A stretch of DNA of 64,000 bases from a virus, in the IMG/VR virus record IMGVR_UViG_3300032157_000006, positions 1 through 64,000 of that record; one strand, written 5' to 3'. Each line of letters starts with the position of its first letter. Position 1 is the first letter of the stretch. Below are positions 1,268 to 18,179 of the stretch, in pieces. Position numbers and translations under genes: made by a program. The notes beneath the pieces were generated by a model that saw only the letters and a list, made by a program, of their open reading frames with translations, was not told the DNA's origin and made no database searches.

Positions 1268-2616
1268 TGGGCATCGAATTCGCGCGCAGGAACCCAGGCA
1301 TCGAGTCCTTCCAGACGGGAATGACCAATGCCGGGCGCCGCCGGGCGCTCGACGACGAGAACTACCGCCGGAACGTCGAATTCGGCAACGAGCAGGCCAC
1401 CGATGCTGCGCTGCGTCAAGGGATTGGCGCCTACTACGCCGACCAGCCGCAAGCGAACCAGCCCGCGCCGCCGGGCGTCTCGGCCGCCGCACAACCAGTC
1501 GCCACGCCAGCGCCCCCGCCAGCCCAGTTCTCGGCGCCGGCACCCACCAACGTCGCGGATGGGTTCGGAGATGCGCAGCGCCTGCCGCCAGACCAGCAAG
1601 GCGCGCCGGCACCGGCGGCCACCCCGACAGGCACCTTCGCCACGCCAGCGGTGCGCGCGGCGCCGCGCAACACCGCCTTCGGGAACGCCATGCGGACGCT
1701 TGCGCGCGCGCCGGGCGGAGGCCGGACCATGATGGCCATGCACCAGCAGGACCAGCAGGGCCAGCGCTCCGACGCCCAGGAAAACCGCCGGCTCCAGCAC
1801 GACGGGCAGGTCCTGTGGCTCAAAGCGATCGACGCTGGCGACCTGCGCATGGCGCAGCACATCGGCCAGCAGTACGGGCTCCAGCTCCCGCCGGACATCT
1901 ACACCAACCGCAAGTCCCTGACCGACGTGAAGGTGGCCACCAACACGGCCAAGAGCCTCGGGATCACCGACGACATGATGGCCGTCTCGTTCGTCGATGC
2001 CTACGTCGATGCGCGCCAGAAGGGCGCCGACGAGGGCACGGCCACGCGCGCAGCCACCGCGGCGGTCAAGTCTGGCGCCAGCGGGCCAGGCAAGGCGGTG
2101 CACTGGGCAGTGGACGACGCGCACCAGGTCACCGGGTTCGATGCGCGCGGCACCCCGATCAGGACCGGCGTGAAGGCGCGCCCGCTCAAGCACGAGATGG
2201 GCGGTGGCGGCGGTGCGGCGGATGGCGCAGGCGGCTCGAAACAGCAGCAGTTCGCCAAATGGCGGATCGACACCCTGGTCGCATCCGGGGTGCCGCTCCC
2301 GGAGGCGCAGAAGATGGTCGCTGGCGGCTCCGCGAACAAGCCTGTGACCGGCGCGCAGCGGCTCGCCGCGGCGAACAGGTTGCTCGGGTCGACCGACAGG
2401 ATGGGTCGGAAACTGTACCCGGACCTGAACGCGGCCTTGAAGGCGATCGACTCTGCGACCAGCGGCGCGGGCGGCCCGGCGCCAGCGGCACCGCAACCCG
2501 GCGCGGAAGCGCCCGCAGGCGCACCTGCACCTGCCGCACAGGCCAGCGGCGCGACACCGAAAAGGCTCAAGTTCAATACGTCCACCTTCGGCCTTGACCC
2601 CGTAACCGCTCAATGA
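1267..2616 (+). CDS. hypothetical Ala/Pro/Gly-rich protein (possible internal virion protein)
   Basis: Track ORF 478..2616 has an Arg/His-rich junk N-terminus. Protein-like sequence begins at ATG 1267 (MGIEFARRNPGIESFQ...), overlapping the preceding stop. The 3' end forms an ATGA overlap with the giant gene. Confidence 0.65.
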   Translation: MGIEFARRNPGIESFQTGMTNAGRRRALDDENYRRNVEFGNEQATDAALRQGIGAYYADQPQANQPAPPGVSAAAQPVATPAPPPAQFSAPAPTNVADGFGDAQRLPPDQQGAPAPAATPTGTFATPAVRAAPRNTAFGNAMRTLARAPGGGRTMMAMHQQDQQGQRSDAQENRRLQHDGQVLWLKAIDAGDLRMAQHIGQQYGLQLPPDIYTNRKSLTDVKVATNTAKSLGITDDMMAVSFVDAYVDARQKGADEGTATRAATAAVKSGASGPGKAVHWAVDDAHQVTGFDARGTPIRTGVKARPLKHEMGGGGGAADGAGGSKQQQFAKWRIDTLVASGVPLPEAQKMVAGGSANKPVTGAQRLAAANRLLGSTDRMGRKLYPDLNAALKAIDSATSGAGGPAPAAPQPGAEAPAGAPAPAAQASGATPKRLKFNTSTFGLDPVTAQ

Positions 2617-5600
2617 CGATCGAGGTCGAACTCCACGATGGCTCCATCGCGGAGTTTCCTGATGGGACCCCGACCGATGTGATGGCTCGGGCGGCTGGCA
2701 ACTATGCCGGCCTGATGGCGCCGCCGAAACCGCCTGCCGCACCGCGCACCGCCGCGCAAGCGCAGCCGGTGCCGGGCTCGAGCTTCGAGTCCGAGATGAC
2801 TGGCTCACCTGTTGAGCCACTGGCGCCGACCAGCGTGATGGAGTCGTTCGAGGCGCGCTCGGCGCCGCCGATGCCCGCCGCGGTGCCGCCTGCCAGGCAG
2901 TTCACCCAGGCGCAGGGGCGTATGGATGCGGAGCGCGTCGTGCGCAGCAAGTTCGACACGCAGCTCTCGCCGCAGGAAGAATTCACCTTCGCCGAGTGGA
3001 AGAAGAAGTATGCGCCAAACGATTCCGGCGAGGATTACGACCTGCGAGGGGCGTTCAAGTCCGGCATGAAGCCTAGCGCCGACGGCCATTGGTCGGACGA
3101 GTTCAAAAAGCCGAATCACCCGACGTTCTCGAATCAGTCACGCTACGCAGCATTCGGCGACCCTGGAGAGTGGGCGGGGGTATGGGACCCGAAAACGAGG
3201 ACCTACACGCCGCCTGTAGGTCCGGACGTTTTCACACCAGCGTCGGCCAAGAGGCCAGCGAACTGGCGCAACGACGTCGCCGACAGCGCCATGGGCCGCG
3301 AGCCAGCACCGGCCGCGCCGCGCGCGCCGACCACCGGCGAGATCATGGGGCAGCAGCCGCGCCTGGAAAAAGGATCGCCCACCACCTTCGCGACCGATGA
3401 GGGCGGGGTGTTCGTAGGCACCCAGGACGAGTTCACGAAGGAGCACGGCAAGAAAAGCGGCGTGCTCGATGACGCCGCGACCTACCCGGACCAGTGGAAG
3501 TACGGCGCCTCGGCCGACATCGCGGCGGCGGCGCGCTGGCTGTCCCAGGTGGACGCCGAGATCGCCCGTAACGACGCCATCGTTCAGACCCGCAGGGTTG
3601 CCCTGCCGAGGGCTTTAGCAGGCCAGCAAGGCGATGTGGCTCGCCCGGCGAACCAGGCCGACATCGACAAGGCAAACGCAGCGCTTCCGATCCTGCGCAA
3701 AGAGCGCGATCGTCTGGAGATGATCCGCTCTGGCGCGGACCTGTCGTTGAAGGAGTCCATGCCGAAGAACCCGTCGACCGTGAGCAAGGCGGTGGGCTCG
3801 ATCGGGCGCAGCGCGGTGCCAACGCTCGCTGGTGTAGCCGCCGGCATGGTGGCTGGTCCTGCGGCCGGATTCGCCGTAGGCATCGGACTTGGTGCGGCGC
3901 AACAAGGTTCCGGTACGTTCGCCGACGTGATCGAGGCCGGTCGGGATGCGAAAGAGCGCCTGGCCACCTTCGATGCGCAGCCGGACCGCAATGGCTACCT
4001 GCAAGCGATCCTGAGCGACCCGAGCGCACCGGAAACGGTGCTCAAGTCGGCCAAGCGGGTCGCCGAGACGGTGGATGACATCGGCGCTCGCCTGAAGGCC
4101 GGGATGCTCAGTTCGAGCGCGGCGCGCCAGATGACCGAGCGCGCCTACGGGTCGTTCAAGCGGGACATGGAATTCATCGCGCGCGGCGCGGACGCCGGTT
4201 ACGCGAACGTCTCGGCCGGGATCGACGCCATCGCCGAGGGTGTGGGCGAGGCGATCGGCTTGGGACCGCTTCTTCGCACCATGAAGATGACCGGGCTCGC
4301 CAAGTCCGGGTTCCTGCCGAGCTTTGCTGAGGCTGTGGTCGCGAACTACGGCCAGGAATACGCCACGCAGCTCATGCAGACGCTGAACGCGCACATGCGC
4401 GCCGACCCAAACGTGACCCTGAAGGACGCGCTCGAGCAGGCCCACGAGGCCGGCGTAGGCGGCGCGCTAATGGGCGGCGGCCTGCATGCACCGCTATATG
4501 CGGCCGGTAAGGCAGCGGAACGCGCCGCGGGCGGCCAGCAACCGGCACCGACAGGTCGCCCTGGTGGACCTCCGCCACCTCCACCGCCAGCGCCGGGCAC
4601 CACTGGGGACCTCGCGGCCACGCTGAAGGACAGCCGGCCGCTCGCGGAGATCCGCGCCGAGCAGGCGCGCGAGCAGACGCAGGCCATGGAGCCGCACGTC
4701 GAGCAGGCCGCTGGTGTTTCATCGCAGCAAGAAATGCTAGATGGCGAGGCGAAGGACGGTATCGCCGAGGCCGCCGGGATCCCGAAGCGCGGCGAGCAGG
4801 CGGTCATCACCTGGCCTGACGGCGAGGTCGCGCGCGGCACGATCCGCGACGTCTACCAGGTCCCGCACCCGAACAGCGGCGATACGATGTCGGGCGCCCA
4901 GGTGGAGCTGGAGAACGGTCAAATCATCGACGTCACCACCGCGGACGTGAAGATCGCGCCGGTGCCGGTGGGCTCTAACCTGCCGAAAGACCCGATCGTC
5001 GTGCAAAGCGCGAGCGACATGGAACAGGCCCGCAGGCGCATCGACGAGGAACGCTCCAACGAGCAGATCATCGCCGACAACGACCGCAAGGCGCATGTCG
5101 AGTGGAACGCGATTCCGATCACGCTCGAGACTGCCAAGGGCACCGAGCGGCGCGACGTGAAGAACACTCCGCCGAAATGGGTCGTTCCGCAGATGCCTCA
5201 CGACTACGGCCGCATCAAGGGCGTGAAGGGGGCTGATGGCGATGCTCTCGACATCGCGCTCGGCGACAAGTACGGCAGCCAGCAAATCTGGATCATCGAC
5301 CAGATCGACCCGGCCACCGGAAAATTCGACGAACACAAGGTCTTTGGAGCGTTCGGCAGCGCCGTCGATGCGGTGCGGTCGTACCGCGCATCGTTCGCCG
5401 ACGACACTGCGCCATCACGCATCGGCGCCATCACGCACATGCCGCTCGCGCAATTCAAAGAGGAGTTGAAAACTCGCGACTGGTCGAAGCCGGTCAAGTA
5501 CGTCGAGCCCGCGGCGCCTGTCGCACAGGAACCTGTCGAAACTCCCGAGCAGGAAAAACGCCGGCAGATCGACGAAGGATTCGCGGCAAATCGCGCGGTG

Positions 5601-8600
5601 CTCGGCAATTTCAAGAAGGGCGACCGCGTGCAGTTCATGCAGGGCGGCACGTTCACTCAGGACGACGGATCGAAGCGCGAAGGTCGGCTCGTCATAGGCA
5701 CGGTCCAGTCAATCCAGGACAAGGAGCAGGGAACCGTCAAGGTCATCGAGGATGGCGGTGGAGATTGGTCCGTTGCTGCGCGACATCTCATCAAAGGAGA
5801 GCCAAATGTTCCCACCGAAGAAAAGCCCGCCGTTCCAGAAACGGGCGGCACCACCACCGGACCAACCGGCGGCGGCTACGTCAAGCCGGAGCTACCCGGC
5901 GCCGAGCCCGGAAAAGAAGAAAAGCCCGCAGGGGATAGCGGCGTTCCACGCGAAGGCGAAGTAGGTGTCGAGCCTCCTGCGCCGCCAGTCGCACAACCTC
6001 CGGTTCAACCTCCTGCCCCGCCAGTGGCGCAGCCGCCGGCACCGCCCGTTGCGCCCACGAAAAAGGAACGCTTTGTAGTCGACGGGAAGGTGGAGACGGC
6101 CAGCGGCAGGATGATCCCGGCACCGCCCGCGCTGCGCATGGAGTCCGACCGCAAGCTCAACGTCGACCTGAAGAAACTCGAAGCGTGGCTGGTCGAACAG
6201 GCGATCGACGAGGCCAAGGCAATCGGTAACGACCTCGCCGTCACGATGTTCGGCGGCGCGCGCGGTCGCACGTTGTCGCAGTCCGACAAGGACGGCATGA
6301 ACGTGCTCCTGTTCGGTGAAGAATTCCCGGAATTCATCATCAAAAAAGAGCCTGTAGTCGAGAAGCAGCCCAAGGAACCGAAGAAGCCGAAGGAGAAGAA
6401 ACCTGAGCTGACCGCGAGCGAGAAGCTGCACGGCGAGATCCTGGACGCGCTCGAGAACAACGATCGCGATGCCATGGGCAAGCTGATCTACCAGGACACG
6501 CCGGTCACCGACGAGATGCGCCCGGAGATCGACCCAGGCGATCGTCTCGTGCGCCTCGTGGTCAAGACCGAGGCGAAAAAAGACGTCCAGACCCGCCTGA
6601 TGGACATCGGCTTCAAGGTGTCCGACCTCCAGGACGTCACCGCCGACGATGGCACCACGAAGAACAAGGTGCTGCGCATGTCGGCGATCTACCGTCCGTC
6701 CAAGGACAAGATCGGTGATTTCGGCGAGAAGATGGGCGGCAAGCGCGCCGATGCGCGCTATAACCCAATGGACGTCGACATTAAACTATCGGCTGATGTT
6801 GATGCCGCCAAGGCGGTCGAAAAGATCATCGCCGCCGTCGCGAAGGACCGCATCGTCACCGCCGAGATGCCGGGCCAATCGTTCGGCCAGTTCATGTTCA
6901 TGGAAGCGCTGTGGCACCGAGCCGAATCGCCGGCCGATTACATCGCCAGGATGATTGGCGGAGACAGCAAAGCCGACATCGCGCGCGTCTACGGCAACAA
7001 GCCCGAGCGCATCGTCGCGCTGGCGAAGCAATACGCCGATACGCTGCTCTCGGTGCAGAAGTTGGTCGAAGGCAAGCAGCGCGTCGATGAAACGGCTGAT
7101 GCGCTCAAGAATGGACTCGCCATATTGAGAGAGGATGGGGTGGTGACAGGAAACACCCCTCTCGGCGTTGAATTTGAATCGGTATGGGGAGAATCGCCAA
7201 CACGAGTTATTGGCAGAATTAAGCATAAATTCTCCACGAACGAGGACTCTACCGACCAGACCAACCGCGAGGTGAAGAAACCCGCCGACCCGGCGCCGCT
7301 CGCTGAGATCATCAGGAAGGGAAAGGATTGGAGACAGGGGAAGGTCGTCACCAAAGAGATGTTCGAGGCAGCGTTCGGCTTCCGCGGCGTCGACTTCGGC
7401 AACTGGATGACGGTGGACGAGCGCCAGGCCGGCCTGAACTATGCCTTCGACGCGCTCATGGACTTGACGGTGCTCACCGGCCTTCCGGCGAAGGCGATCG
7501 GCCTTGGCCGAACGCTCGGTTTCGGTATAGGTTCGCGCGGTGTTGGGAATCGCGGCGGCCGTCACGCTGCGGCGACCTACCATCCTGACAACCGCGTCAT
7601 CAACCTGACCAAGACGCACGGCAACGGCACGGTCTACCACGAGTGGATGCACGCACTCGAGGATTACCTGCGCAAGTACAGCAAGACCACAATCTACGGG
7701 ATAAATCACACCGACAAACTGCGCGAGGCGCTACGGCTGAAGTCGAATATTGCCGCCTTGGAGTCGCGCTTCCGCGCCAAGCTGTCCGAGGACGCATCCA
7801 CAGGACGCGACCGCAATGTGCCGCCGAAGGAGCGCGCACTCGCTTGGGCGAACAACAAAACGCCGCACTATGTCCATGGCTGGTGGACGGAGCACTACGG
7901 CATTCGGGCGCGAACTACGTTCAACGCCGATGCGCTGGAGATGGATGGCGGCAAGATCAAGTATTGGGCCGAGCCGCACGAGCTGGTGGCGCGCGCTTGG
8001 GAATCGTTCACCTACGACGAATCCAAGGGTAAGACACCCTACGGCGTTGGCCCTCACGTCGCCGACGGCTACTGGACGAAGAAGTCTGGCTACGACGGCA
8101 CGGCCTATCCGGCTGGTCCTGAGCGCGAGTACGTCGTCACAACTATGAAGCGCTTCCTCGAGGCGCTGAAGGTCGACGATACTGGCGCGATCACGATCAA
8201 GGAAGGCGCGATCGACGTCATCGACCGTCAGATTGAGGAAGCGAAAGCCGAACTCGCGCGCCTGGTCGAAAACGTCGACAAGATCATGGAGGAAATGGGG
8301 ATCCGCCAGCACCCGGAGCAAAAAGACGGGTCGATGACGGAATCCATGTTCTATCACATGCGCAGCGGCTGGTGGCCGAAGGACAAGCACGCCCTTCGCA
8401 CGTTCGTCGCCCAGGCGCACAAGAAGTCGACGAACGAGGTCGATGATCTGCTGCTTCGCCAAGGAGTCGAAGATTTCGAGGCTGCGATGGCGCGCTACGC
8501 CGGCCAGCTCATCCAGGACTGGAAGGGCAAAGGACTTGACGATCGCGCGATCTACGATCGCCTTTTCGAGATGTACAACACGCAGCCGCTGCTCGATGTT

Positions 8601-11600
8601 CGCACCTCGACCGTGGTGATGAACCAGCAATACTCGACGCCGCTGCCGATCGCCTACATCGCTGGCGTCATGGGTCACGTCGGGGAGAAAACCGTCGGCT
8701 ACGATCCGACCGCCGGCAACGGGCTCCTGGGCATCACGCTCAACCCGAAGCGCTTTATCGCGAACGAGCTGGACGACCGGCGCTACAAGAACCTGACGAT
8801 ACTCGAGACGCGCGCGCACCACGGCGATGCGCTGGAGACGCACGAGCGCAAGGTCTACAAGCCGCAGGAAGCCGACACCGTGCTGATGAACCCGCCATTC
8901 GGCCTGATGACCGATCCGCAGAAGGAGGATGGCTACACCATCAAGCGCATCGACCAGTGGATCGCGATGAGCAACCTCGACGCCATGGCCGACAAAGGCC
9001 GCGCGGTGCTGATCCTGGGCGCATCGCGCGATGCCGGAGTTATCAACCAGAACGAGCTGGATTTCTTCCACTGGCTCTGGATCAACTACAACGTGGTCGA
9101 CCATTTCGAGATCACCGGGAAGCTCTACGCGCGCCAAGGGGCGAGCTGGCCGATCCGGGTGCTCGTCATCGCCGGCCGTTCGCCCTCGAAACTTCCGCGC
9201 CCGGTTAGCGGCGCAGTGGACCGATTGGAGAGTCGCGATGACATTTGGGCCCGTGTCGAGAAAGCAAGAGACGCCGCCGCAACGCCAGTTGCCGGCGGGG
9301 TATCCAAGCGGGTGGTGGGTGCCGGAAAGACAGTCAGCCGCGATGGCGGTCAAGGGAAGCCCGGAGATGTCGGGGTCGGAGTATCACCAGGCGTTTCTGG
9401 AGAAACTGGTGGACGCGATGCAGGCGCAGGGGCAGGAATCGGCGCGCCAGTCGATACTGACGTTCCTGGAGCCGTTCAACCGGGAGAGCTACTTCCCGGA
9501 GGACGCGGACCTGGAGACGTGGGCGCGCAACCTGACGGGACTTCTGGCGTTCCCGCTGTCGAGCCCGGAAGCATCGGGACCGGCCGAACTGGAAGCGGCG
9601 CTCCAAGCGGTGAGCGCGCAGGAGGACCTGACGCTATCCGAGATCCTATCGGCGGGAGCGGCCTGACCGACCAGGACCTCGATGACATTTTCGGCGACGA
9701 CGCGCCGCGGGGTCCAAAAAAGCCGAAGGTCCGCACCAAGCGCAGCGGCCCGCGCGCCAAGGCGGCGGATCCTGCCAAGACAAACGCCGACGACGTAACC
9801 GAGGCTGGCGGGCCGATGGATCAGGTGAACGCCAACAGCGGCGACCTAGTTGGCGCGTTCGATGCGATCGACGCCATCTTGAACGGCCGCGCGACGGCGC
9901 CGAAGCCGTTCCCGCAAAAAAAAAGTGGAAGTTCCAGCCGCGCTCTGGTAGCAGCGCAGCATAAAACTGTCGAGAATCGTGTCGCCGACCAGGGCGAGTG
10001 GTGGGTCAGCGACCTGGTGGACGAGGTTCTGGTCGATGCCAAGCCGCTGCTCGATGCCGCACCGGATTCTGACGTCGTGTTCATGGGCAAGCAGGGACCG
10101 CAGATCGACGCGACCATCCTCCAGAAGCTGCGCCCGCACTTCGAGTTGATCTGGAAAGCGGTTTCCGAGAAAGCAAAAGCCGCGCGCGATGCGGCGATCG
10201 CATTCCGTGACCTCGTGGTAGAGAAGTGGGGCGCAAAGGTCCTTGCCTACGCCAAAGCCTTCATCGTCGAGAAGCTGCGCCAGGTGCAGGCCGTCGGCCA
10301 GAAGGGGCCGGTGAACAACGCGATCGAGAACGCCGATCAGGTGTTCTATCAGGGGCTGTCGCAGGGCAAAAACGAGGGGGTGATGATCCCCCGTTCGCAG
10401 CTCGAGCACTCCAAGCGCGCTCTCGCGGCGCTGGATTCTCGCCTACGAAACCAGTACCCGGACGGCATCGACCAGTTCGTGAAGGAGATGGTCGGATACG
10501 AGTCGATCGCGAAGATGCACGAGCACCTGTTCGGCTACCAGGTCGACGGGGTAGCTCTGCAACTGGACGCGATGATGACCGGGAAAGCCTTCATCGTTGG
10601 CGACGACACCGGCGTCGGCAAGGGTCGCCAGGCCGCGGCGCTGGTCGTGTGGGCGCAGAAGGAAGGCAAGATCCCGATCTTTATGACGGCGCAGGACAAT
10701 CTCTACAGCGACCTGTACCGTGACATGGAGGGCATCGGGTTCGACAAGCCGGAGTGGATCCAGCCATCGAACACGGAATGGAAGGTCACGAACGAGTACG
10801 ACGAGGAAATGTCGTCGCCGGGGCGCGGTGAGCTGACCGGCAACAAGCTCGCGGTGCAGATGCTGAAGAACATGGATGGACAGGCAAAGCCGAAAAAAGA
10901 ATCAAAGGTCCCGCCTGCCTCTGAACCATTGACGCCGGAAAATACAGCCGCCGCCATCTCGGAACTGGTGGAGAACGTGAAGGCTGCTGGTGAGCAGGAA
11001 AATATAGACGTCGACGTCTCAAAGGTTTTCCCGGTGAAGAAGCGCAAGGCGCTCTTTACCACCTACGCGCAGATGCAGGGTCCGGCAGGATCCACGCGCA
11101 GGGCCGTGATCGAGCGGCTGGTAAAGGCCGGGAAAGCGGTCCTGATCCTGGACGAATCGCACAAAGCGGCAGGGGAGTCAGGGGTCGGAAAGTGGCTGGT
11201 GAAGATGACCACCGACTACGCACCGCCGGTTGCATTCTTCTCGGCGACCTTCGCCAAGCGCGCTGACAGCCTCCCGATCTACATGCGCACGGACCTGCGC
11301 CATGTGGCGCCGACCGTGCCGGAGGTGATCGACACGATCGTCTCTGGCGGGCCGCAGATGCAGGTGACGATCTCGGAAATGCTGGTGGAAGCCGGCCAGA
11401 TGGTGCGCCGCGAGCGCAGCTACAACGGCATCGTTCCGAAGTTCGACATCGACGAGAACTCCGAGCCGGTCGATGCGCGCACCATGAACGAGGTGACCGA
11501 CCGGCTGCGGGCGATCCTCGCCGCCAACCGTGAGTTCAATGCCTGGGCGAAGCAGAACAAAAAGCAGTTCCAGGAACTCGTCCAAGGGCTGTTCCCGGAG

Positions 11601-14600
11601 AACGTGTGGTTGGCCAATATAGACGCGAAGGAGCTGGACAAGAACCTCGGCGCTTTCAATTTTGCAAGCACCGTCCACAACTACGTGAAACAGTTCCTGC
11701 TCGCCGTGAAGGCCGAGCGGATCGTGCAGCACGTGGTCAAGGGAATGAACGAGGAAAACCACGAGGGTACGCAGCAGAAGTTCGTGATCGGCCTGGAGAA
11801 CACGATGGAGGCCGCCCTCGACGATTTCACCGAGATGGAGTCCGTAAAATCAGGCGATTCCATGGCTGGATATTCATGGCGTTCCGTGCTCCAGCGTGCC
11901 GAACGCCGCGCGCGCACGGTGAGCCTCAAGATCGTCGGCACGAATAAACGCATCCGAGTGGTGCTGCCGCTGGAAATTATTCCCGGCCACGTGCAGGCGA
12001 GCTTCCGCAGGGCGCAGACGAAGATCGAAGCCTACGAGTCGGCGCTGCCGGCCAGCCCAATCGACTTCATTCGCTGGCAACTCGGAAAGCACTACGTCTA
12101 CAAGGAAGGCGGAAAGGTGCGTGTCGCGCTCACCCCGCCCAAGGATGCGTCCGGCGTGCGGCCGTTCACCACGAGCGAGATCACCGGGCGCGAGAACATC
12201 GTCGAGTACGACGATGAGGGGAACATGACCCTCGGCAAGCGCGATGATCCGTCCAAGCGCACCACGATCAACGAGTACCAGAACGGCGGCATCGACGCGG
12301 CCATCCTGAACATCTCCGGCACCACCGGGATTTCCATGCACCCGAACGCGAAGGTGAAAGACCAGCGCGTGCGTCACATGCTGATCGCGCAGCCGCTTGG
12401 CGACATCAATGAATTCAAGCAACTCTCCGGACGCATAAACCGTACCGGCCAGGTAGAGCTGCCGCTCTACACCTTCATCGGAACCGCGCTGCCGGCCGAG
12501 AAGCGTCCCCTGGCGGTGCTGCGCCGCAAGCTGCGTTCGCTGACCTCGAACACGAAGTCGGCCACTGAGTCGATGCAGGATCTTGACCTGACTGATTTCG
12601 TCAACCAGTACGGAGATGAAATCGTCACGCGCTGGCTGCGCGAGCATCCGGAGTACGTGGACATGCTCGCCATCAAGGAAATGCCGGAGAACACAACCCT
12701 GGCAGAAGCGGCTCTATCGGTGTCTGGAAAGATCGCCGTACTGGAGGTGGTCGACCAGGCGCAGTTCTACGATGAAATCGAGCACAACTACGCCGCCTAC
12801 ATCAAGGAGCTGACCGACAGCGGAGAAAACAAGCTGATCCGGCGTGCGCTGCCTCTGAAAGCCCAGGTCCTTGGAGAGAACGAACTGGGCGAGGGCGACC
12901 CTTCCGCCAGCTCACCGTTCCTCAAAGGCTCGTTCCTCCAGAAGCTGTCGGTGGTCACGCAAAACGAGGTGCCGACGAAGGAAAAGCTGCTCGCCGACAT
13001 CGCTGATTTCTACGAGAAGGCGCCTGCCAATACGCACGACGCGCTGGTGGCCGCGATCGAGGCCGAGCTGAAGGTTCCATACGACGAAGCGACCAGCCAG
13101 GTCAGCCGCCAGATTGACGACTACGAAAAGCAGCTCACCGAGCCTGACATCCCGGAGCTTGAGCGCCAAAAGGTCGACACCACACTTCAGACCATGAAGC
13201 AGAAGGCGGCCTCGTTCGCAGCGCGCAAGCAAAAGACGCTCACCGAGCTTCGCAACTACGTGCCAGGCAGGGTGATGATGATGCACATCGACGGCGAGGA
13301 TTACACCGCCGTCGTGACCAACCTGTCGCACCAGAGCCCAGGCGCCATCGGCCATGGCAATCCCTACGCGCCATCGCGCTTTCGCCTCTCTTTCGCGCTG
13401 AACGCGCCGCGCCCGCGGCTGAACCTCACGCTCGCGCGCATCGAAGCGTTCCAGGAGGGCGGCGCCAAGCTGCGCGGAGCCATGTTCGGCAACGTGCTCG
13501 GCGGCCAATACACTGAGCAGGCGCAGCGGCGCATGGAAGAAGCGTTCGATCCGACCAAAGCGAAGGCTGCGGGCGGGCGCGAGACGCGCTACATGGTGAT
13601 CGGAAACATCCCGTCCGGCTTCAACATGGTGCAAAACAAGGGTGAAATCGTCACCTTCACCTACGAGAGCGGCGATGAGAAGGCCGGCGTACTGCTGCCG
13701 CACAAGTTCAACCCGGCGAAGGACATCTCGGACTCGTTCCCGATAAAGGACATGAACGCGGGCGCCCAGTACCTGCTGGTGCCGCTCTATCGCGCGATCA
13801 AAGATGGGTTCCTCGAGGGCTACGCCGACTATGCCGAGTTCGTCAAAAAGGCGAAGGAAGATTTCATCGACCTGGAGTACAGCGGCGAGGATGCGTTCAA
13901 CATCCAGACCAACGGCCTCACCAACAATACCGGGGCCGTCACTCTGAAGGTCCGATCGCGCTCTACTGGCCTCGAGATCGAGATCGACAGCAAACTTGGC
14001 AAGAAGATCGCATCAGAAATGGTCGAGGACAAGCGCCTCCATGAGCTGATGGGAACCGAGTTTTCCAAGCGCAAGGGACAGGACTGGCAGGCGCGCGTCG
14101 ATCTGCAAAAGAACGATCTTCAGGAATTCCTACGCTACTTCGCCGGCAAATGGGGCCTGAACGTCCCGCTGCCGACGCGGGATCTGTACAAGCGGATCCG
14201 CGACACCATGGCGCGCCGAGATGAGGGCGAAATCAAGCTGATGGGCATGTCCGTGCCCACCGAACCGAAAGGAGTATCCGATGAGACTCGTAAAAAGGTT
14301 GACAACACTTCTGGCCGGCGCCTTCAGGCTCTGCGGCGCAGCGTCATGGTCGCGCTGCGTGACCGGAACGTCCCCGAAGGCATGTTCACGAAAGGTATTC
14401 TGCCTCGTGCCACTGCTGAAGGATTGAGGGAACTCGAGGACTTCCTCGGCATCACGGCGCTGCCGTTCAAGAACAACAACCCGGAAATCTTCGACTTCCA
14501 GGGCGCTACCCTGCGCTCAGACGGCGACGTGTTCTACATCAACGTAGACGCGCCGGTGCCGGCGGTTGCGCTCGCCGCCCACGAGGGGGTGCACCTCCTT

Positions 14601-17600
14601 CGCAACCGCGACGAGCGCCTGTATCAGCGCATGGTGACGCGGATCCGCCCGATGATGCAGGGGATGGACAAGTTCCGCGCCATGGTGACCGAGGGCCGCG
14701 GCGGCAAGGAAGCGTCCTGGGATCTCACCGAGGAGGAGCTGATCGCAGACATCCTTGCCGATGCGATGCTCGATCCCGTGTTCGCGGCCAAGCTCTACGG
14801 GCGCGACCCGACTCTGTTCCAGAGGATCTACTCCTACCTCATCAAGCTGCTCGACCAGCTCGGCCTGCACCTGAAAAAGCCGCGCTCGAGCCACAAGTAC
14901 GTGACCGACCTACAGGGCGCGCGCGACGTGCTTTCCAAGGTATTGAGCGAGCGCCGTGCCAACCCGCCAGTCGACGATGACACGGTGATCCGGTTCGACG
15001 CTGAGTTCACCGAGGCGATGCGCAAGGAAATCGGCAAGGACTTGGACGATGTGTTGAAGCTCATGCCGGCGCAGCCTGGCGGCATCAAGGTGATCGACAA
15101 GCAGGCCGGGCGCGAGGGGATGCTGCCGCTCAAGCGCTTCTTCTACAACCCGGTGAATGCCTTCCAGAAATTCCCGGTGATCGCCGCGCTCCAGCGCTTC
15201 GCGGTGCACATCGAAACCGATATGTCGAAGATCCAGCGCCGGTTCATGTCAGAATTCGAGGACCTGCGCAAGAAACTGTCGGACGAGCAGTGGGACGAGC
15301 TGGCTGGCGTCCTTTTCGTGGGCGATGCCGAGGCCGTGGAGTGGACTGAGGCCGATTTGCGCGAGCACGGCATCACCGACGACAAGGTGGTCACGGCCTA
15401 CAAGGAATTCCGCACCCTCATCACCAAGGTCGGGCGCCTGGTCGACATGCACCGGCGCTCGATGCTGCCTAAGTACCGCGCGCGTAAGCAGGCGCTGCTT
15501 GAGCGCATGCGCAGCTTGCGCAACATGACGGACCCGGAATTCCGTGCCCTGTACGGCCAGAGGACGAGGCTGCTGGCCAGCATTCGCGCGGGCGGCACCG
15601 CCACCATGAACGTCGAGCAGTTGCATGCCAGGCTCGATGCCGTGGAGATGCAGTTGAACGTCAAGCGCGAGGCGATGGACGAGTACCAGGACCTCCAGGA
15701 GCAGGTCGACCAGATCGACGCGATCTTGGCGCAGACCTCGATCCGGCGCCGGACCGGCTACGTCCCGCACAAGTTTTTCGGCACCTTCGCCATCTACCGG
15801 GCCCAGGAAGAAGAAGTCATCGACCCGGAGACGCTGGAAGTGGTGCGAGACGCCAATGGCGACCCGGTGACGCGGCCGATCAACGTGCTGGTGGCTGGCG
15901 AGCACGGCTTTTTCCCTACGCAGCAGGACGCGGTGGCGGCTGCGAAGAAGTACCTGGCCGACAATCCAGGCACCGAGCTGACCGTTCGCCCGGTCCAGTT
16001 CAAGTTTCCGAATTCATCGGCCACCACCCTGACCGATGCGTCCTACTGGCGCCTGCTCGGGCGCATGGGCAAGGAACTGGGCCTGCACGGGCAGGACCTG
16101 AAGGATGCCATGGAGGGCGTGGCGCGCCGCCGGTTCCGGCGCCGGATCGCCGGGTTCACCAAGATGCGGACGGGCGTGGAGGGCTTCAGCCGCGACCTCG
16201 AGCGCGTGATGCAGGCGCACTTGCAGGAGGCGAGCCGCTACGTCTACCTGGACAAGCTCAAGTACCGTGCGATCAACGACATGGAGAAGATGGGCCTGTC
16301 GCCCTTCAGGTCGACCAACCAGCAGTACCCGACCTTGGGGCCGATGGTGGAAGCGTTCCTGCGCGACATGAACGGCCAGAAATCGAGCGGCGAGGCCGCG
16401 GCCGACGAGGTGCTGGACAAGATGATGTCCTCGAAGTGGGGCTCGCCGGCCGTGATCGGCACCACCGCGGGCTCGGCCGCCGCATCGGCGCTGATGTTCG
16501 GGATCTCGACCAACCCGCTCCTTGGCCTGCTGGTAGGGTCCTACGTCGGGTATCGGTTCTACTCGTCTCTCAAGCACGGCGGGGAATTCAAGACGCGGGC
16601 GCTCACCGGCGACATGATGAGCGACATGGCGCACCTGAAGCTCGGGATGCTGCTGAACATCTCGTCGGCGATCGTGAACCTGACGCAGACGATGGTGAAC
16701 ACGCTGCCGGTGCTCAAGCCCAAGTACACGATGATCGGGTTCCAGAAGTTCGAGGCCGCCCTCAGATCCTATGTGCTCGGAAAGCCCAATTCCGACTGGC
16801 GGCTGCTCGAGCGCACGGATGCGGAATCCATCAACAAATTCGGCGAGCACAAGGGCGCCCGCGTGATTGGCACGGGCTCCGTGAAGAAGTTGTTCGACAT
16901 CCCGAAATCAAAGCTCGAGGGCCTGCGCTACCTGGAGAACGCAAAGCGCCTGGGCGCGTGGACGTCCATGCTCGCTTTCGATTCGGCAGAATCTCTCAAC
17001 CGAGGCGTGTCGTTCCTGGGCGGGTACTACCGGGCGAAGGACGAAGGCAAAACCCCCGGAGAATCCTTCCGCGAGGCCGAGAAGGTGATGCTGTTCACTC
17101 AGCACAACTACGGCAAATCGAACAAGCCGGAGATCATGCGCAACGTGTTTTTCCGCCTGCCGCTGCAATTCAAGAATTACGTCGCGCAGCAGATCGCCTT
17201 CACATTCGACATGGCGAGGAAGGCCGCAACCGGCCGCTCACTGTCGGAAGTGCCGTTCGACCGGGACGCGCTCGCCTACCACCTGACATCCCTGTTCCTG
17301 CTCACGGGCGCGATCGGCATGCCGCTCATCGGTGTGCTCGCCGCGATCATCAAGGGAATTTTCGACTACGACGTCATGGACGAGCTGAAGAAAAAGGCCC
17401 TGGAGATGCAGGCGCACGGGAAGCTCGCCGCATCAGCCGCGACCACCCTGGCGCGCGGCCTGCCAGCGGCTATCTTCGGCGAGGACCTGTCCGGTCGCGC
17501 TGGCATGGGCGAGCAGTTCCTGCCGTTCGACCCGTCCAACCCGTGGGGACCCTGGTTGGGCACGGTCAAGAACCAGATCGCGCTCGCCGAGATGCAGGCC

Positions 17601-18179
17601 GGGTTCATCGACCAGCTCCAGAACATCAGCCCGGCCGCCAAACCCTTCAAGGCGATGGAGGCCATGGCCAACGGCCTGCCGGCGCGCGACCTGATCCTGC
17701 GGCCCAAGACCTTCTTCGAGGCGCTGGCCGACGACCGGATCGACTGGACGAACCCGTGGAAGAACGGCTACACGGAGTACGACCAGACCATGATCTCCAA
17801 GCGCGACGTCATCCGCATGGGGATGGGCTCGACCCCGACCACGGTGTCGGAGCTGCGCGACGTCGAGAGGGTCGCGGTGCACGAGACGGACCAGCACAAG
17901 CGCAAGACCCGCCTGTACGTGAACCGGGTGATTGCTGCGGCGCGGCGCTACGAAAGCGACCCTGCCGAGCTGAACAAGGTCCTCGACAATGTTGCAGCGC
18001 AAATGGAGAAAGACGACTTCATGGTGTCGGCCAGTACCATGCAATCGTCCTACCGCAATGCCTTCACCCCGAGGGTGCTGCGGACCCTCAAATCGGTGCC
18101 GCGCGCTGTGAAACCTGGGATTGCGGGTATGATCGAGCCCTTGATGGACCGGCAAAAGCCAGAAGAAGCGAGGCCGTGA
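2613..18179 (+). CDS. giant multidomain 'polyvalent' protein (5,188 aa): PPase-like, two zincin HExxH modules, N6-adenine-type MTase, strawberry-notch-like helicase, C-terminal TM cluster
   Basis: Single open frame coupled at both ends (ATGA at 2613; TGATG at 18177-18181). Motifs read directly: DGDALD (5235), DFGEKMGGKRAD (6717), HEWMH (7638), DPTAGNG (8703), NPPF (8889), GVGKGRQ (10611), DESH (11151), QLSGRINRTGQ (12420), HEGVH (14580). Caveat: frame anomaly at about 9334-9666. Confidence 0.85.
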   Translation: MTIEVELHDGSIAEFPDGTPTDVMARAAGNYAGLMAPPKPPAAPRTAAQAQPVPGSSFESEMTGSPVEPLAPTSVMESFEARSAPPMPAAVPPARQFTQAQGRMDAERVVRSKFDTQLSPQEEFTFAEWKKKYAPNDSGEDYDLRGAFKSGMKPSADGHWSDEFKKPNHPTFSNQSRYAAFGDPGEWAGVWDPKTRTYTPPVGPDVFTPASAKRPANWRNDVADSAMGREPAPAAPRAPTTGEIMGQQPRLEKGSPTTFATDEGGVFVGTQDEFTKEHGKKSGVLDDAATYPDQWKYGASADIAAAARWLSQVDAEIARNDAIVQTRRVALPRALAGQQGDVARPANQADIDKANAALPILRKERDRLEMIRSGADLSLKESMPKNPSTVSKAVGSIGRSAVPTLAGVAAGMVAGPAAGFAVGIGLGAAQQGSGTFADVIEAGRDAKERLATFDAQPDRNGYLQAILSDPSAPETVLKSAKRVAETVDDIGARLKAGMLSSSAARQMTERAYGSFKRDMEFIARGADAGYANVSAGIDAIAEGVGEAIGLGPLLRTMKMTGLAKSGFLPSFAEAVVANYGQEYATQLMQTLNAHMRADPNVTLKDALEQAHEAGVGGALMGGGLHAPLYAAGKAAERAAGGQQPAPTGRPGGPPPPPPPAPGTTGDLAATLKDSRPLAEIRAEQAREQTQAMEPHVEQAAGVSSQQEMLDGEAKDGIAEAAGIPKRGEQAVITWPDGEVARGTIRDVYQVPHPNSGDTMSGAQVELENGQIIDVTTADVKIAPVPVGSNLPKDPIVVQSASDMEQARRRIDEERSNEQIIADNDRKAHVEWNAIPITLETAKGTERRDVKNTPPKWVVPQMPHDYGRIKGVKGADGDALDIALGDKYGSQQIWIIDQIDPATGKFDEHKVFGAFGSAVDAVRSYRASFADDTAPSRIGAITHMPLAQFKEELKTRDWSKPVKYVEPAAPVAQEPVETPEQEKRRQIDEGFAANRAVLGNFKKGDRVQFMQGGTFTQDDGSKREGRLVIGTVQSIQDKEQGTVKVIEDGGGDWSVAARHLIKGEPNVPTEEKPAVPETGGTTTGPTGGGYVKPELPGAEPGKEEKPAGDSGVPREGEVGVEPPAPPVAQPPVQPPAPPVAQPPAPPVAPTKKERFVVDGKVETASGRMIPAPPALRMESDRKLNVDLKKLEAWLVEQAIDEAKAIGNDLAVTMFGGARGRTLSQSDKDGMNVLLFGEEFPEFIIKKEPVVEKQPKEPKKPKEKKPELTASEKLHGEILDALENNDRDAMGKLIYQDTPVTDEMRPEIDPGDRLVRLVVKTEAKKDVQTRLMDIGFKVSDLQDVTADDGTTKNKVLRMSAIYRPSKDKIGDFGEKMGGKRADARYNPMDVDIKLSADVDAAKAVEKIIAAVAKDRIVTAEMPGQSFGQFMFMEALWHRAESPADYIARMIGGDSKADIARVYGNKPERIVALAKQYADTLLSVQKLVEGKQRVDETADALKNGLAILREDGVVTGNTPLGVEFESVWGESPTRVIGRIKHKFSTNEDSTDQTNREVKKPADPAPLAEIIRKGKDWRQGKVVTKEMFEAAFGFRGVDFGNWMTVDERQAGLNYAFDALMDLTVLTGLPAKAIGLGRTLGFGIGSRGVGNRGGRHAAATYHPDNRVINLTKTHGNGTVYHEWMHALEDYLRKYSKTTIYGINHTDKLREALRLKSNIAALESRFRAKLSEDASTGRDRNVPPKERALAWANNKTPHYVHGWWTEHYGIRARTTFNADALEMDGGKIKYWAEPHELVARAWESFTYDESKGKTPYGVGPHVADGYWTKKSGYDGTAYPAGPEREYVVTTMKRFLEALKVDDTGAITIKEGAIDVIDRQIEEAKAELARLVENVDKIMEEMGIRQHPEQKDGSMTESMFYHMRSGWWPKDKHALRTFVAQAHKKSTNEVDDLLLRQGVEDFEAAMARYAGQLIQDWKGKGLDDRAIYDRLFEMYNTQPLLDVRTSTVVMNQQYSTPLPIAYIAGVMGHVGEKTVGYDPTAGNGLLGITLNPKRFIANELDDRRYKNLTILETRAHHGDALETHERKVYKPQEADTVLMNPPFGLMTDPQKEDGYTIKRIDQWIAMSNLDAMADKGRAVLILGASRDAGVINQNELDFFHWLWINYNVVDHFEITGKLYARQGASWPIRVLVIAGRSPSKLPRPVSGAVDRLESRDDIWARVEKARDAAATPVAGGVSKRVVGAGKTVSRDGGQGKPGDVGVGVSPGVSGETGGRDAGAGAGIGAPVDTDVPGAVQPGELLPGGRGPGDVGAQPDGTSGVPAVEPGSIGTGRTGSGAPSGERAGGPDAIRDPIGGSGLTDQDLDDIFGDDAPRGPKKPKVRTKRSGPRAKAADPAKTNADDVTEAGGPMDQVNANSGDLVGAFDAIDAILNGRATAPKPFPQKKSGSSSRALVAAQHKTVENRVADQGEWWVSDLVDEVLVDAKPLLDAAPDSDVVFMGKQGPQIDATILQKLRPHFELIWKAVSEKAKAARDAAIAFRDLVVEKWGAKVLAYAKAFIVEKLRQVQAVGQKGPVNNAIENADQVFYQGLSQGKNEGVMIPRSQLEHSKRALAALDSRLRNQYPDGIDQFVKEMVGYESIAKMHEHLFGYQVDGVALQLDAMMTGKAFIVGDDTGVGKGRQAAALVVWAQKEGKIPIFMTAQDNLYSDLYRDMEGIGFDKPEWIQPSNTEWKVTNEYDEEMSSPGRGELTGNKLAVQMLKNMDGQAKPKKESKVPPASEPLTPENTAAAISELVENVKAAGEQENIDVDVSKVFPVKKRKALFTTYAQMQGPAGSTRRAVIERLVKAGKAVLILDESHKAAGESGVGKWLVKMTTDYAPPVAFFSATFAKRADSLPIYMRTDLRHVAPTVPEVIDTIVSGGPQMQVTISEMLVEAGQMVRRERSYNGIVPKFDIDENSEPVDARTMNEVTDRLRAILAANREFNAWAKQNKKQFQELVQGLFPENVWLANIDAKELDKNLGAFNFASTVHNYVKQFLLAVKAERIVQHVVKGMNEENHEGTQQKFVIGLENTMEAALDDFTEMESVKSGDSMAGYSWRSVLQRAERRARTVSLKIVGTNKRIRVVLPLEIIPGHVQASFRRAQTKIEAYESALPASPIDFIRWQLGKHYVYKEGGKVRVALTPPKDASGVRPFTTSEITGRENIVEYDDEGNMTLGKRDDPSKRTTINEYQNGGIDAAILNISGTTGISMHPNAKVKDQRVRHMLIAQPLGDINEFKQLSGRINRTGQVELPLYTFIGTALPAEKRPLAVLRRKLRSLTSNTKSATESMQDLDLTDFVNQYGDEIVTRWLREHPEYVDMLAIKEMPENTTLAEAALSVSGKIAVLEVVDQAQFYDEIEHNYAAYIKELTDSGENKLIRRALPLKAQVLGENELGEGDPSASSPFLKGSFLQKLSVVTQNEVPTKEKLLADIADFYEKAPANTHDALVAAIEAELKVPYDEATSQVSRQIDDYEKQLTEPDIPELERQKVDTTLQTMKQKAASFAARKQKTLTELRNYVPGRVMMMHIDGEDYTAVVTNLSHQSPGAIGHGNPYAPSRFRLSFALNAPRPRLNLTLARIEAFQEGGAKLRGAMFGNVLGGQYTEQAQRRMEEAFDPTKAKAAGGRETRYMVIGNIPSGFNMVQNKGEIVTFTYESGDEKAGVLLPHKFNPAKDISDSFPIKDMNAGAQYLLVPLYRAIKDGFLEGYADYAEFVKKAKEDFIDLEYSGEDAFNIQTNGLTNNTGAVTLKVRSRSTGLEIEIDSKLGKKIASEMVEDKRLHELMGTEFSKRKGQDWQARVDLQKNDLQEFLRYFAGKWGLNVPLPTRDLYKRIRDTMARRDEGEIKLMGMSVPTEPKGVSDETRKKVDNTSGRRLQALRRSVMVALRDRNVPEGMFTKGILPRATAEGLRELEDFLGITALPFKNNNPEIFDFQGATLRSDGDVFYINVDAPVPAVALAAHEGVHLLRNRDERLYQRMVTRIRPMMQGMDKFRAMVTEGRGGKEASWDLTEEELIADILADAMLDPVFAAKLYGRDPTLFQRIYSYLIKLLDQLGLHLKKPRSSHKYVTDLQGARDVLSKVLSERRANPPVDDDTVIRFDAEFTEAMRKEIGKDLDDVLKLMPAQPGGIKVIDKQAGREGMLPLKRFFYNPVNAFQKFPVIAALQRFAVHIETDMSKIQRRFMSEFEDLRKKLSDEQWDELAGVLFVGDAEAVEWTEADLREHGITDDKVVTAYKEFRTLITKVGRLVDMHRRSMLPKYRARKQALLERMRSLRNMTDPEFRALYGQRTRLLASIRAGGTATMNVEQLHARLDAVEMQLNVKREAMDEYQDLQEQVDQIDAILAQTSIRRRTGYVPHKFFGTFAIYRAQEEEVIDPETLEVVRDANGDPVTRPINVLVAGEHGFFPTQQDAVAAAKKYLADNPGTELTVRPVQFKFPNSSATTLTDASYWRLLGRMGKELGLHGQDLKDAMEGVARRRFRRRIAGFTKMRTGVEGFSRDLERVMQAHLQEASRYVYLDKLKYRAINDMEKMGLSPFRSTNQQYPTLGPMVEAFLRDMNGQKSSGEAAADEVLDKMMSSKWGSPAVIGTTAGSAAASALMFGISTNPLLGLLVGSYVGYRFYSSLKHGGEFKTRALTGDMMSDMAHLKLGMLLNISSAIVNLTQTMVNTLPVLKPKYTMIGFQKFEAALRSYVLGKPNSDWRLLERTDAESINKFGEHKGARVIGTGSVKKLFDIPKSKLEGLRYLENAKRLGAWTSMLAFDSAESLNRGVSFLGGYYRAKDEGKTPGESFREAEKVMLFTQHNYGKSNKPEIMRNVFFRLPLQFKNYVAQQIAFTFDMARKAATGRSLSEVPFDRDALAYHLTSLFLLTGAIGMPLIGVLAAIIKGIFDYDVMDELKKKALEMQAHGKLAASAATTLARGLPAAIFGEDLSGRAGMGEQFLPFDPSNPWGPWLGTVKNQIALAEMQAGFIDQLQNISPAAKPFKAMEAMANGLPARDLILRPKTFFEALADDRIDWTNPWKNGYTEYDQTMISKRDVIRMGMGSTPTTVSELRDVERVAVHETDQHKRKTRLYVNRVIAAARRYESDPAELNKVLDNVAAQMEKDDFMVSASTMQSSYRNAFTPRVLRTLKSVPRAVKPGIAGMIEPLMDRQKPEEARP
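5085..5400 (+). other. inorganic-pyrophosphatase-like segment of the giant protein
   Basis: IPITLETAKGTERRD...PHDYGRIKGVKGADGDALDIALGD...IWIIDQID..GKFDEHKVF follows the family-I PPase layout (YGxIPxT..DGDPxD..., then an acidic strand with DxK). DGDALDI deviates from the PPase signature D-[SGDN]-D-[PE]-[LIVMF]-D-[LIVMGAC] at one position. Confidence 0.35.
5973..6056 (+). repeat. in-frame proline-rich tandem repeat linker (PPAPPVAQ-type) inside the giant gene
   Basis: 28 codons read PPAPPVAQPPVQPPAPPVAQPPAPPVAP, an imperfect 8-codon unit repeated about 3.5 times. Confidence 0.8.
7330..8130 (+). other. zincin-like metallopeptidase module 1 of the giant protein (HEWMH)
   Basis: FGFRGVDFGNWM...GGRHAAATYHPDNRVINLTKTHGNGTVYHEWMHALEDYL, with HExxH at 7638-7652. 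Resembles the metallopeptidase modules described for phage/plasmid polyvalent proteins. Confidence 0.55.
8620..9200 (+). other. N6-adenine-type DNA methyltransferase domain of the giant protein
   Basis: SAM-binding motif I VGYDPTAGNGLLG (8703-8723), followed about 60 aa later by catalytic motif IV VLMNPPFG (8889-8900). Confidence 0.7.
9334..9666 (+). CDS. candidate embedded +1-frame ORF encoding a very acidic ~100-110 aa protein (or evidence of a frameshifted or split giant gene)
   Basis: Frame +1 relative to the giant ORF reads (MAVKGSPE)MSGSEYHQAFLEKLVDAMQAQGQESARQSILTFLEPFNRESYFPEDADLETWARNL... By hand count about 85% of its codons end in G/C, against about 40% for the giant frame, which here reads Gly/Pro/Arg-rich. 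Its TGA (9664-9666) overlaps an in-frame CTG of the giant frame (CTGA). Confidence 0.4.
   Translation, partial: SAAMAVKGSPEMSGSEYHQAFLEKLVDAMQAQGQESARQSILTFLEPFNRESYFPEDADLETWARNLTGLLAFPLSSPEASGPAELEAALQAVSAQEDLTLSEILSAGAA
10470..12560 (+). other. strawberry-notch/SNF2-like superfamily-2 helicase domain of the giant protein
   Basis: Walker A FIVGDDTGVGKGRQAA (10611-10628), DExH box LILDESHKAAG (11151-11162) and motif VI QLSGRINRTGQ (12420-12452). GVGKGRQ is characteristic of strawberry-notch-type helicases, which are often fused to MTases. Confidence 0.75.
14400..14800 (+). other. second HExxH zincin-like segment of the giant protein (HEGVH)
   Basis: DVFYINVDAPVPAVALAAHEGVHLLRNRDERLYQ, with HExxH at 14580-14594; downstream acidic residues (EEELIADILADAMLD). 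Confidence 0.4.
16436..17370 (+). other. cluster of predicted transmembrane helices near the C-terminus of the giant protein
   Basis: Hydrophobic runs: AVIGTTAGSAAASALMFGISTNPLLGLLVGSYVGY, LKLGMLLNISSAIVNLTQTMVNTLPVL, LGAWTSMLAFDSA, LTSLFLLTGAIGMPLIGVLAAIIKGIF. A possible PLxRFG-like motif is RLPLQFKNY (about 17150-17176). Confidence 0.5.

Follow-up and report, generated by a model that had tools for sequence, protein, structure and literature searches.

Why does the coding signal of a very large phage gene leave its own reading frame for about 430 bases and then return to it? The question is raised by positions 9238–9666 of IMG/VR virus record IMGVR_UViG_3300032157_000006, of which positions 1 to 64,000 (the window, 64,000 nucleotides of one strand) were analysed. 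The segment lies inside a 15.5-kb open reading frame (ORF), in the linker that joins the N6-methylase module of its polyvalent protein to the strawberry-notch helicase module, which is where a first-pass annotation, made by a model from the sequence alone, had placed it. We suggest that this is very probably a true dual-coding segment, in which a conserved nested gene with its own start, which we call X, is read in the +1 frame inside the giant gene (frame 0). Phage giant proteins of this clade share the two-frame arrangement as a conserved hallmark.

The first-pass annotation had offered three readings: an overprinted gene, two genes reached by +1 shifting, or a recent pair of compensating indels or assembly errors. 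Purifying selection on the +1 product, its conservation in relatives, and a Shine-Dalgarno (SD) sequence followed by ATG at the very start it had given, 9238, all speak for the first. The features on which the argument depends are as follows.

2613–18179, + strand: giant polyvalent-protein ORF, 5188 aa, with codons starting at positions divisible by 3
9226–9229, + strand: SD-like GGAG, 8 nt (9230–9237) before the nested ATG at 9238, formed from frame-0 Leu-Glu (CTG GAG)
9234–9257, + strand: end of the methylase module in frame 0, RDDIWARV, whose Asp codon GAT and the G after it supply the nested ATG
9238–9666, + strand: nested gene X, +1 frame, 142 aa plus TGA, pI 4.4
9261–9662, + strand: Gly-rich interdomain linker, the frame-0 reading of the X DNA, 28% Gly and hydrophilic
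9310–9324, + strand: GWWVP, the most conserved motif of X in alignments, with W26, W27 and P29 invariant
9664–9666, + strand: X stop codon TGA, within frame-0 CTG-ACC (Leu-Thr)

The coding signal changes frame inside the giant gene

Across most of the giant ORF a sliding count gives GC contents of 0.64/0.43/0.81 at codon positions 1/2/3. Within 9238–9666 the coding signal leaves frame 0 and enters the +1 frame, the wobble position of which is giant codon position 1. Between ~9330 and 9660 sliding windows give 0.85–0.93 at giant position 1 and only 0.33–0.55 at position 3. GC at third positions (GC3) over 9367–9663 is 0.84 for the +1 frame and 0.45 for frame 0, close to the ~85% and ~40% that had been counted by hand. 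The switch is the extreme of the whole 15.5-kb ORF (z = 4.8 for position 1 minus position 3), and the lowest position-3 GC of the ORF (0.34) falls at 9363. The usual giant-frame GC3 is back by ~9640–9670, bearing out the earlier remark that the +1 ORF ends, at TGA 9664–9666, where the normal signal returns; the junction reads GGCCTGACC. Every factual statement of the first-pass annotation about the segment is borne out.

Only one other clear position-1 case occurs in the giant ORF, a second GC maximum (0.87) at 5658–6152. It was considered as another nested gene and rejected, because both other frames contain stops there and the product is an ordinary low-complexity linker of Pro/Ala/Val/Gly-rich repeats (PPAPPVAQPP...).

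The two-frame layout recurs across related phages

More than 45 independent loci, ranging in GC content from 36% to 70%, have the same layout, as does every related phage examined: across the Gly-rich methylase–helicase linker frame 0 has no stop, and a +1 ORF of ~95–190 codons lies within it. On an unrelated Logan contig (L001), protein P0001 is 72% identical to the +1 peptide and both frames are open. A contig of a metagenome-assembled genome (MAG) has the layout as well (P0002/L002), and its NCBI annotation is one continuous frame-0 protein. The layout is also present in loci L004, L006/L007 and L032–34, and in a distant relative of 54% GC (L003). Further loci were retrieved by a conserved frame-0 methylase motif; a search seeded with a narrow X alignment recovered only the known MAG contig. 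All 14 of the IMG/VR contigs obtained in this way (GC 36–67%) carry the layout and an open frame 0, and frame 0 is open in 24 of 25 further metagenome loci. The sole metagenome locus with a frame-0 stop is L045. This stop lies past the end of the nested ORF (~981 nt beyond the anchor at 279) and is likely an error or a variant, because the near-identical L044 is open.

A cultured Bacteroides phage, BS-TP4 (PQ571277.1, L023), has an unannotated 119-codon +1 ORF at 3333–3692 in the same linker, and its GenBank record annotates only the giant CDS, 1511–17686. Plasmid methylase-Sbno genes served as a negative control: in pND6-2 and in a Yersinia plasmid the linker is short and contains no +1 ORF.

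This recurrence bears directly on the idea that compensating indels or assembly errors in one genome have displaced a true protein with X in frame. The +1 peptide does resemble a normal domain placed between frame-0 domains, as that idea would have it. However, the identical layout, with the stop at the end of X, is seen in >45 assemblies from different projects, an in-frame version is absent from the giant proteins, and the alignment of the window to L001 runs without gaps over both supposed indel sites. We consider the chance that indels or assembly errors account for the segment to be negligible, and the third of the earlier readings is given up.

Both frames are under selection

Window and L001 align gaplessly from 9159 to ~9745. 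In the left flank (9159–9237) the differences between them fall on giant codon positions 1, 2 and 3 as [5, 3, 12], and in the right flank (9667–9745) as [5, 3, 10]; within 9367–9666 the distribution is [37, 15, 16]. Set against the pattern of the flanks, this means that evolution has treated +1 as the coding frame within the segment. Ratios of nonsynonymous to synonymous substitution rates (dN/dS), calculated by the Nei-Gojobori method, agree. In the high-GC clade dN/dS is 0.32–0.40 for the X frame, while for frame 0 it is 1.1–2.2 in the overlap and 0.07–0.34 in the flanks; the low-GC clade has medians of 0.29 for the X frame, 1.8 for frame 0 in the overlap and 0.08 for frame 0 in the flanks. 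Taken together, the values for frame 0 in the overlap span 1.1–2.4. X is under purifying selection at the amino-acid level, and the per-frame comparison that had been proposed earlier thus finds the +1 peptide conserved (about 0.3) and the frame-0 overlap above 1. Synonymous rates in the low-GC clade are 0.5–0.75 in X and mostly >1.1 in the flanks, as would be expected of wobble positions under a second constraint.

X codons were resampled synonymously with each genome's own codon usage, and the frame-0 stops so created were counted. For the low-GC loci 7–12 stops are expected and none is present (stop-free P <= 2e-4). None of 5000 resamples of L003 was stop-free in frame 0 (8.9 stops expected), nor was any of 50000 for BS-TP4 (10 stops expected). 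The reverse test, +1 openness given the frame-0 peptide, gives P = 0.003–0.2. The earlier argument that the giant frame could stay open by chance is thus fair for the window and fails across its relatives.

The composition of frame 0 is likewise not what X would produce by itself. In AT-rich relatives its Gly content is 26–28%, against 6–11% expected from the X sequence, and its hydrophobic residues amount to 13%, against 27–28% expected. Predictions from X sequence and codon usage together give 6% Gly for L013, where 26% is observed, and 20% for the window, where 27% is observed (P = 0.003). In the AT-rich phages it is G-ending X codons that make frame 0 read Gly. Frame 0 is selected to stay open, Gly-rich and hydrophilic; with Gly enriched and hydrophobic residues halved, we therefore regard it as a selected flexible spacer that is served by the codon choice of X.

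These observations can be set against the proposal that frame 0 is untranslated across the overlap, i.e. that there are two genes, the helicase half being made from its own start (e.g. ATG 9816) with the bridge as a by-product. Gene callers do split truncated contigs into X and a downstream gene starting ~120–190 nt later, and the window bridge alone could be open by chance (P = 0.115). Yet with no frame-0 stop in the way, upstream ribosomes must read through; frame-0 openness is non-random in the low-GC relatives and holds in 24/25 metagenome and 14/14 viral loci, and the Gly-rich, hydrophilic composition is selected. An arrangement of two separate genes is accordingly very improbable.

A chance open frame due to high GC, or a constraint at the level of nucleic acid such as RNA structure, is hardly credible either. 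High-GC genomes hold many long spurious ORFs, and the window has an example at 16436–18676. The X ORF, however, persists at 36–45% GC, where neighbouring alternative frames are full of stops, the substitutions carry +1 codon periodicity, the product is predicted to fold confidently, and it is an ordinary stand-alone gene in bacteria.

X has start signals of its own

How might the +1 frame be entered? GGAG, GAGG or AGGA is found at −15 to −5 of the nested ATG in 29 of 38 loci, compared with 139 of 2424 (5.7%) controls, which were out-of-frame ATGs within the same loci. Nearly every lineage has an ATG somewhere between its nearest +1 stop upstream and the WWVP motif; none was picked out in L047. 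In the clade of the window GGAG(G) stands 7–8 nt before the nested ATG, and the ATG itself is formed from frame-0 Asp-Asp/Glu, with Asp written as the rarer GAT in 4/4 high-GC sequences. The AT-rich clade forms its GGAG from Trp-Ser(AGY), at a distance of 5 nt upstream of the ATG. Variants are AAGGAGG (L019 and L046), GGGAGG (L020), GGAGGAG (L022) and AAGGAG (L003).

Stops in the +1 frame often lie close upstream. A TAA abuts the nested ATG in L003; L001 and L002 have stops 6–10 codons upstream of it; and the low-GC clade has one 3 codons before the first ATG and 9 before the SD-preceded ATG. Between such stops and the ATG no space is left for a conserved frameshift site. The promoter scan of the region gave no internal promoter, and Rfam gave no RNA element here. 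X is most likely made by internal initiation from its own start, as its start signals suggest.

The principal alternative is a programmed +1 frameshift near 9230–9300, which would yield a truncated methylase–X fusion ending at 9666 beside the full-length protein. In the window the +1 frame is open upstream as far back as 9031, and the retention of both frames would be accounted for if the region gave two products. An SD-like sequence stimulates +1 shifting in prfB, and the upstream GGAG could in principle act likewise. Against this, shift-prone codon or stop context is not conserved (CTT-TGG in some low-GC loci, TTA-TGG in others), the upstream +1 stops leave at most 0–10 codons for a shift, an ATG is present in nearly all lineages and is held in the high-GC clade by the rarer GAT, and the Rfam search found no element here. 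In addition, a profile search of 1.84 billion representative proteins never found X in frame within a methylase–helicase protein; it found X only as small ORFs or as proteins of X plus an acidic segment. A programmed shift is in our opinion improbable. With no conserved shift site, stops upstream of the ATG in relatives, and a frame 0 that is kept open and Gly-rich under selection, the earlier reading of two genes by +1 shifting is not supported either.

Two further routes at the end of X were looked at and set aside. A −1 frameshift into frame 0 was rejected after inspection of the window and of the low-GC clade, where no X_XXY_YYZ heptamer is found near the stop. Termination–reinitiation at CTGA was rejected because the junction varies: L006 has GTGA there, and the low-GC clade has TAG. 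CTGA, to which the first-pass annotation had drawn attention, is present in the window, but its geometry is not conserved.

X is a protein family of its own

The 99-aa peptide from 9367–9663 contains 16 Asp plus Glu against 4 Lys plus Arg, counts identical to those reported before. Across the family alignment W26, W27, P29, A37, V38, Y49, A52, G65 and Q128 are invariant. An AlphaFold2 model built on a 65-sequence alignment (predicted local distance difference test, pLDDT, 82; predicted template modelling score, pTM, 0.73) has residues 1–24 disordered, followed by a predicted short beta-hairpin bearing WWVP...AV and then a helical bundle with five main helices. The X domain of P0046, a homologue of the AT-rich type, reaches an AlphaFold pLDDT of 90–95. 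The invariant residues, the models and the database homologues show X to be a real protein family with a confidently predicted fold.

Besides P0001 and P0018–P0022 there are 121 database homologues, and every one is named 'hypothetical protein'. Most sit on short contigs that start just upstream of X, which we attribute to gene-caller behaviour: the nested ORF gets called only where the giant ORF is truncated. X is otherwise invisible to annotation because pipelines forbid long same-strand overlaps. P0016 and P0017, initially candidate matches, are repeat proteins and were discarded. Divergent nested ORFs (L018, L020–22, L003 and several metagenome loci) are tied to X by weak but consistent profile matches and share with it a W-x-P ... 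L-A/T-V ... aromatic-helix pattern.

X had no match among the curated families of Pfam, PHROGs, NCBIfam and PADLOC. Foldseek searches with the X model against PDB (twice) and BFVD gave best E > 1, and PDB sequences searched by profile yielded nothing meaningful. Nothing useful came from blastn of the region against INPHARED phages and PLSDB plasmids, and tblastn of X, or of X plus the acidic segment, found no match in annotated phage and plasmid collections.

Bacteria carry stand-alone fusions of X and the acidic segment

In frame 0 of the giant gene an acidic segment begins where X ends, bounded by two conserved blocks.

9663–9698, + strand: frame-0 acidic motif LTDQDLDDIFGD, which starts where X ends and occurs once in the window
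9843–9914, + strand: second conserved frame-0 block DLVGAFDAIDAILNGRATAPKPFP, equivalent to LEGLGLE.LLDELD.ALNGKAP

Relatives keep the acidic motif as GGLSDLDLDDIF or TDQDIDNIFG, and in lineages that have it X terminates immediately before it. The second block (...AIDAILNGRATAPKPFP, ending at 9914) closes the acidic segment that accompanies X, and the acidic+X fusions have their boundary at it.

The longer database homologues are in-frame fusions of X with the acidic segment, and both orders occur: X first in P0119 and P0041, the acidic segment first in P0046, P0031, P0033, P0066, P0107, P0082 and P0018. Four stand-alone in-frame fusions could be placed in bacterial defence or integrative islands.

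L026, 10001–10663: stand-alone in-frame X/acidic fusion
L029, 5986–6645: stand-alone in-frame X/acidic fusion
L035, 1099–1764: stand-alone in-frame X/acidic fusion
L005, 695–1324: stand-alone in-frame X/acidic fusion

A divergent HTH_3 repressor gene stands beside two of the four, adjoining P0119 and P0018. The P0119 island contains an integrase, a Toprim/AAA_25 primase, a type I restriction-modification system and a Shedu SduA_C gene; P0046 has GmrSD, HNH and ZorA-like/OmpA genes as neighbours, and P0041 has a Dpd 7-deazaguanine cluster.

The DNA of these bacterial genes retains traces of the second frame. Beneath the N-terminus of P0046 the +1 frame still holds a decayed C-terminus of X, the linker frame is almost open across X in stand-alone fusion DNA, and upstream of P0119 there is a remnant of the methylase end, YGELWSRHVQ, with the native GGAG-ATG. 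As these are relics of the two-frame unit, we conclude that the bacterial genes descend from fragments of phage giant genes. Small duplications appear to have put X and the acidic segment in one frame. Separately, P0139, a metagenome protein of 192 aa in the acidic+X order, follows the X reading up to its middle part and the Gly-rich linker reading after it; either this stand-alone copy is a frameshifted variant or its sequence contains an error.

The host gene is a phage polyvalent protein

Pfam matches in the first half of the giant protein are InPase and LPD1, and those in the second half are AAA_34 and Helicase_C_4 (strawberry notch). Directly upstream of X is the C-terminal end of the N6-adenine methylase module, a region homologous to 'N-6 DNA Methylase' and strawberry-notch proteins and common to the giant ORF and hundreds of plasmid "strawberry notch" proteins. 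The D[DE][LI]W.R motif at its end is kept in P0002, P0003 and L006–L022. Elsewhere in the window are TerL (44003–45637), a portal (45538–47811) and a head-closure protein. Because InPase/LPD1, methylase and strawberry-notch helicase occur together in a terminase, portal and head-closure context, the host gene is a phage polyvalent protein with a methylase–helicase dyad.

A model for the two-frame unit

We propose that a ribosome translating the 5188-aa protein would read 9238–9666 in frame 0 as a Gly-rich flexible linker leading from methylase to helicase. In the +1 frame X would be read from GGAG 9226–9229 and ATG 9238 to TGA 9664–9666 as a separate, 142-aa acidic protein, presumably through internal initiation. 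X would then work together with the giant protein, most likely with its acidic DLDDIF segment; this segment is the likeliest partner, and the two can be expected to act together, because bacteria have repeatedly fused both into one polypeptide. X probably has a role in the anti-defence programme of the phage.

Several points weigh against this account of a nested, separately translated gene and its partner. The lineage of L006/L038 is without a canonical SD, and Bacteroides phages would not use SD sequences. Translation of X, in any phage, is something that we infer from sequence features. In the window by itself ~2 frame-0 stops are expected and the observed openness has P = 0.115, so that the argument depends on the relatives. 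In BS-TP4, L019/L044 and L050–L052 the nested ORFs are positional analogues without detectable similarity to X. An AlphaFold model of an acidic+X fusion gives the acidic segment a pLDDT of 38–55 and leaves it undocked on X; with such low confidence direct binding to X is unsupported, and a physical interaction would be an inference only. The libraries searched above gave no functional handle from a fold or family match.

A more elaborate scheme, which we regard as unlikely though worth stating, would make X a dedicated partner subunit whose gene lies in the linker of the very protein that it serves. Translated from the same mRNA, X may engage the giant protein during its synthesis, at the acidic DLDDIF segment that emerges immediately downstream, and may control how the anti-defence machine is folded or packaged or how active it is. 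Fragments of the unit may have been captured by bacteria and satellite-like islands, with small frame-joining duplications fusing X to the acidic segment, and the fusion may be deployed in defence islands as a decoy or dominant-negative anti-phage factor. It would follow that the giant gene itself may have arisen by read-through of an intervening gene in another frame, whose DNA became the linker.

Comparison with known overlapping genes

The lambda spanins Rz/Rz1 are the familiar case of a complete small +1-frame gene inside a larger same-strand gene, with its own start and stop and with products that cooperate. X resembles Rz1 in being nested on the same strand in +1 with its own start and stop. 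It differs in that its host is a 15.5-kb polyvalent gene and the overlap falls on an interdomain linker, with a folded nested product and a host frame selected as a Gly-rich spacer; there is no relation in sequence or fold.

Overprinting in small viruses, e.g. phiX174 A/A*/B/K and D/E, pairs an ordered product with a disordered or biased one and constrains synonymous sites; such overlaps are usually explained by genome compression and by de novo birth of the disordered partner. X and its host frame share the two-frame DNA, the pairing of an ordered with a biased product, and the constrained synonymous sites. Unlike in small viruses, the genome here is ~64 kb or more and not obviously size-limited, and the nested partner is the ordered one and also a normal gene elsewhere. 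From lambda Rz/Rz1 and small-phage overprints alike, X is set apart by its stability from 36% to 70% GC and by derivatives domesticated by bacteria. Overprinted genes of small viruses are among the subjects of a review (PMC8227390).

In the present case a folded protein and a selected flexible linker can stably share ~430 bases across 36%–70% GC, and the amino acids that one gene needs can drive the choice of codons in the other.

Programmed frameshift pairs such as dnaX tau/gamma, the tail chaperones G/GT and prfB also draw two proteins from one region in two frames. X differs from them in having no conserved slippery site, stimulatory structure or shifty stop, and in having its own SD and ATG with stops directly upstream. 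Programmed frameshifting has been reviewed (PMC5009743). Ocr and ArdA are acidic DNA-mimic anti-restriction proteins, and X is likewise small, strongly acidic, phage-encoded and located in an anti-defence locus, a likeness of composition only. No sequence or structural similarity to them was found (Foldseek against PDB and BFVD; Pfam, PHROG, NCBIfam and PADLOC). With acidity as the only shared property, the DNA-mimic idea for X is neither supported nor excluded.

Among polyvalent proteins P1 DarB is a studied example. The host gene agrees with this class in carrying LPD1, InPase and an N6-methylase followed by a strawberry-notch SWI2/SNF2 ATPase, and in being phage-borne and presumed anti-defence; the polyvalent plasmid members examined, unlike it, are without the long linker and nested ORF. 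Polyvalent proteins with a DNA methylase–helicase dyad are described in Iyer et al. 2017 (PMC5512222), the paper that introduced polyvalent proteins; a search of its text found neither 'frameshift' nor 'overlapping', and our literature searches found no description of nested gene X. X is an unrecognised component of phage polyvalent anti-defence proteins, linked to bacterial defence-island genes, and the link offers an experimental handle on the phage component and the bacterial genes alike. The cultured phage BS-TP4, with its positional analogue lacking detectable X similarity, is one place to test such translation.

Further features of the giant gene

The 746-codon +2-frame ORF at 16436–18676 runs across the 3' end of the giant ORF. 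Its overlapping part was rejected as coding, since its GC by codon position (0.88/0.58/0.43) marks it as a non-coding, artefactual extension. The true gene behind it starts at ATG 18179, with a one-base overlap with the giant stop (TGATG).

A 10-nt direct repeat, GATGACATTT, flanks X at 9237–9246 and 9681–9690, with a spacing of 444 nt and in phase. As an insertion scar it was dismissed: the two copies correspond to the conserved frame-0 motifs DDIW and DDIF, and the repetition is probably a coincidence that follows from these.

About 250 nt past the X stop, within frame-0 'PQKKSG', this 62%-GC genome has an A9 homopolymer (9916–9924). Its equivalent is A9 in L001 and A8 in L002, and L004 has none. 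Beyond the A9 the −1 frame ends after 19 codons and the +1 frame after ~14, and slippage on the run could truncate the giant protein just past the acidic segment.

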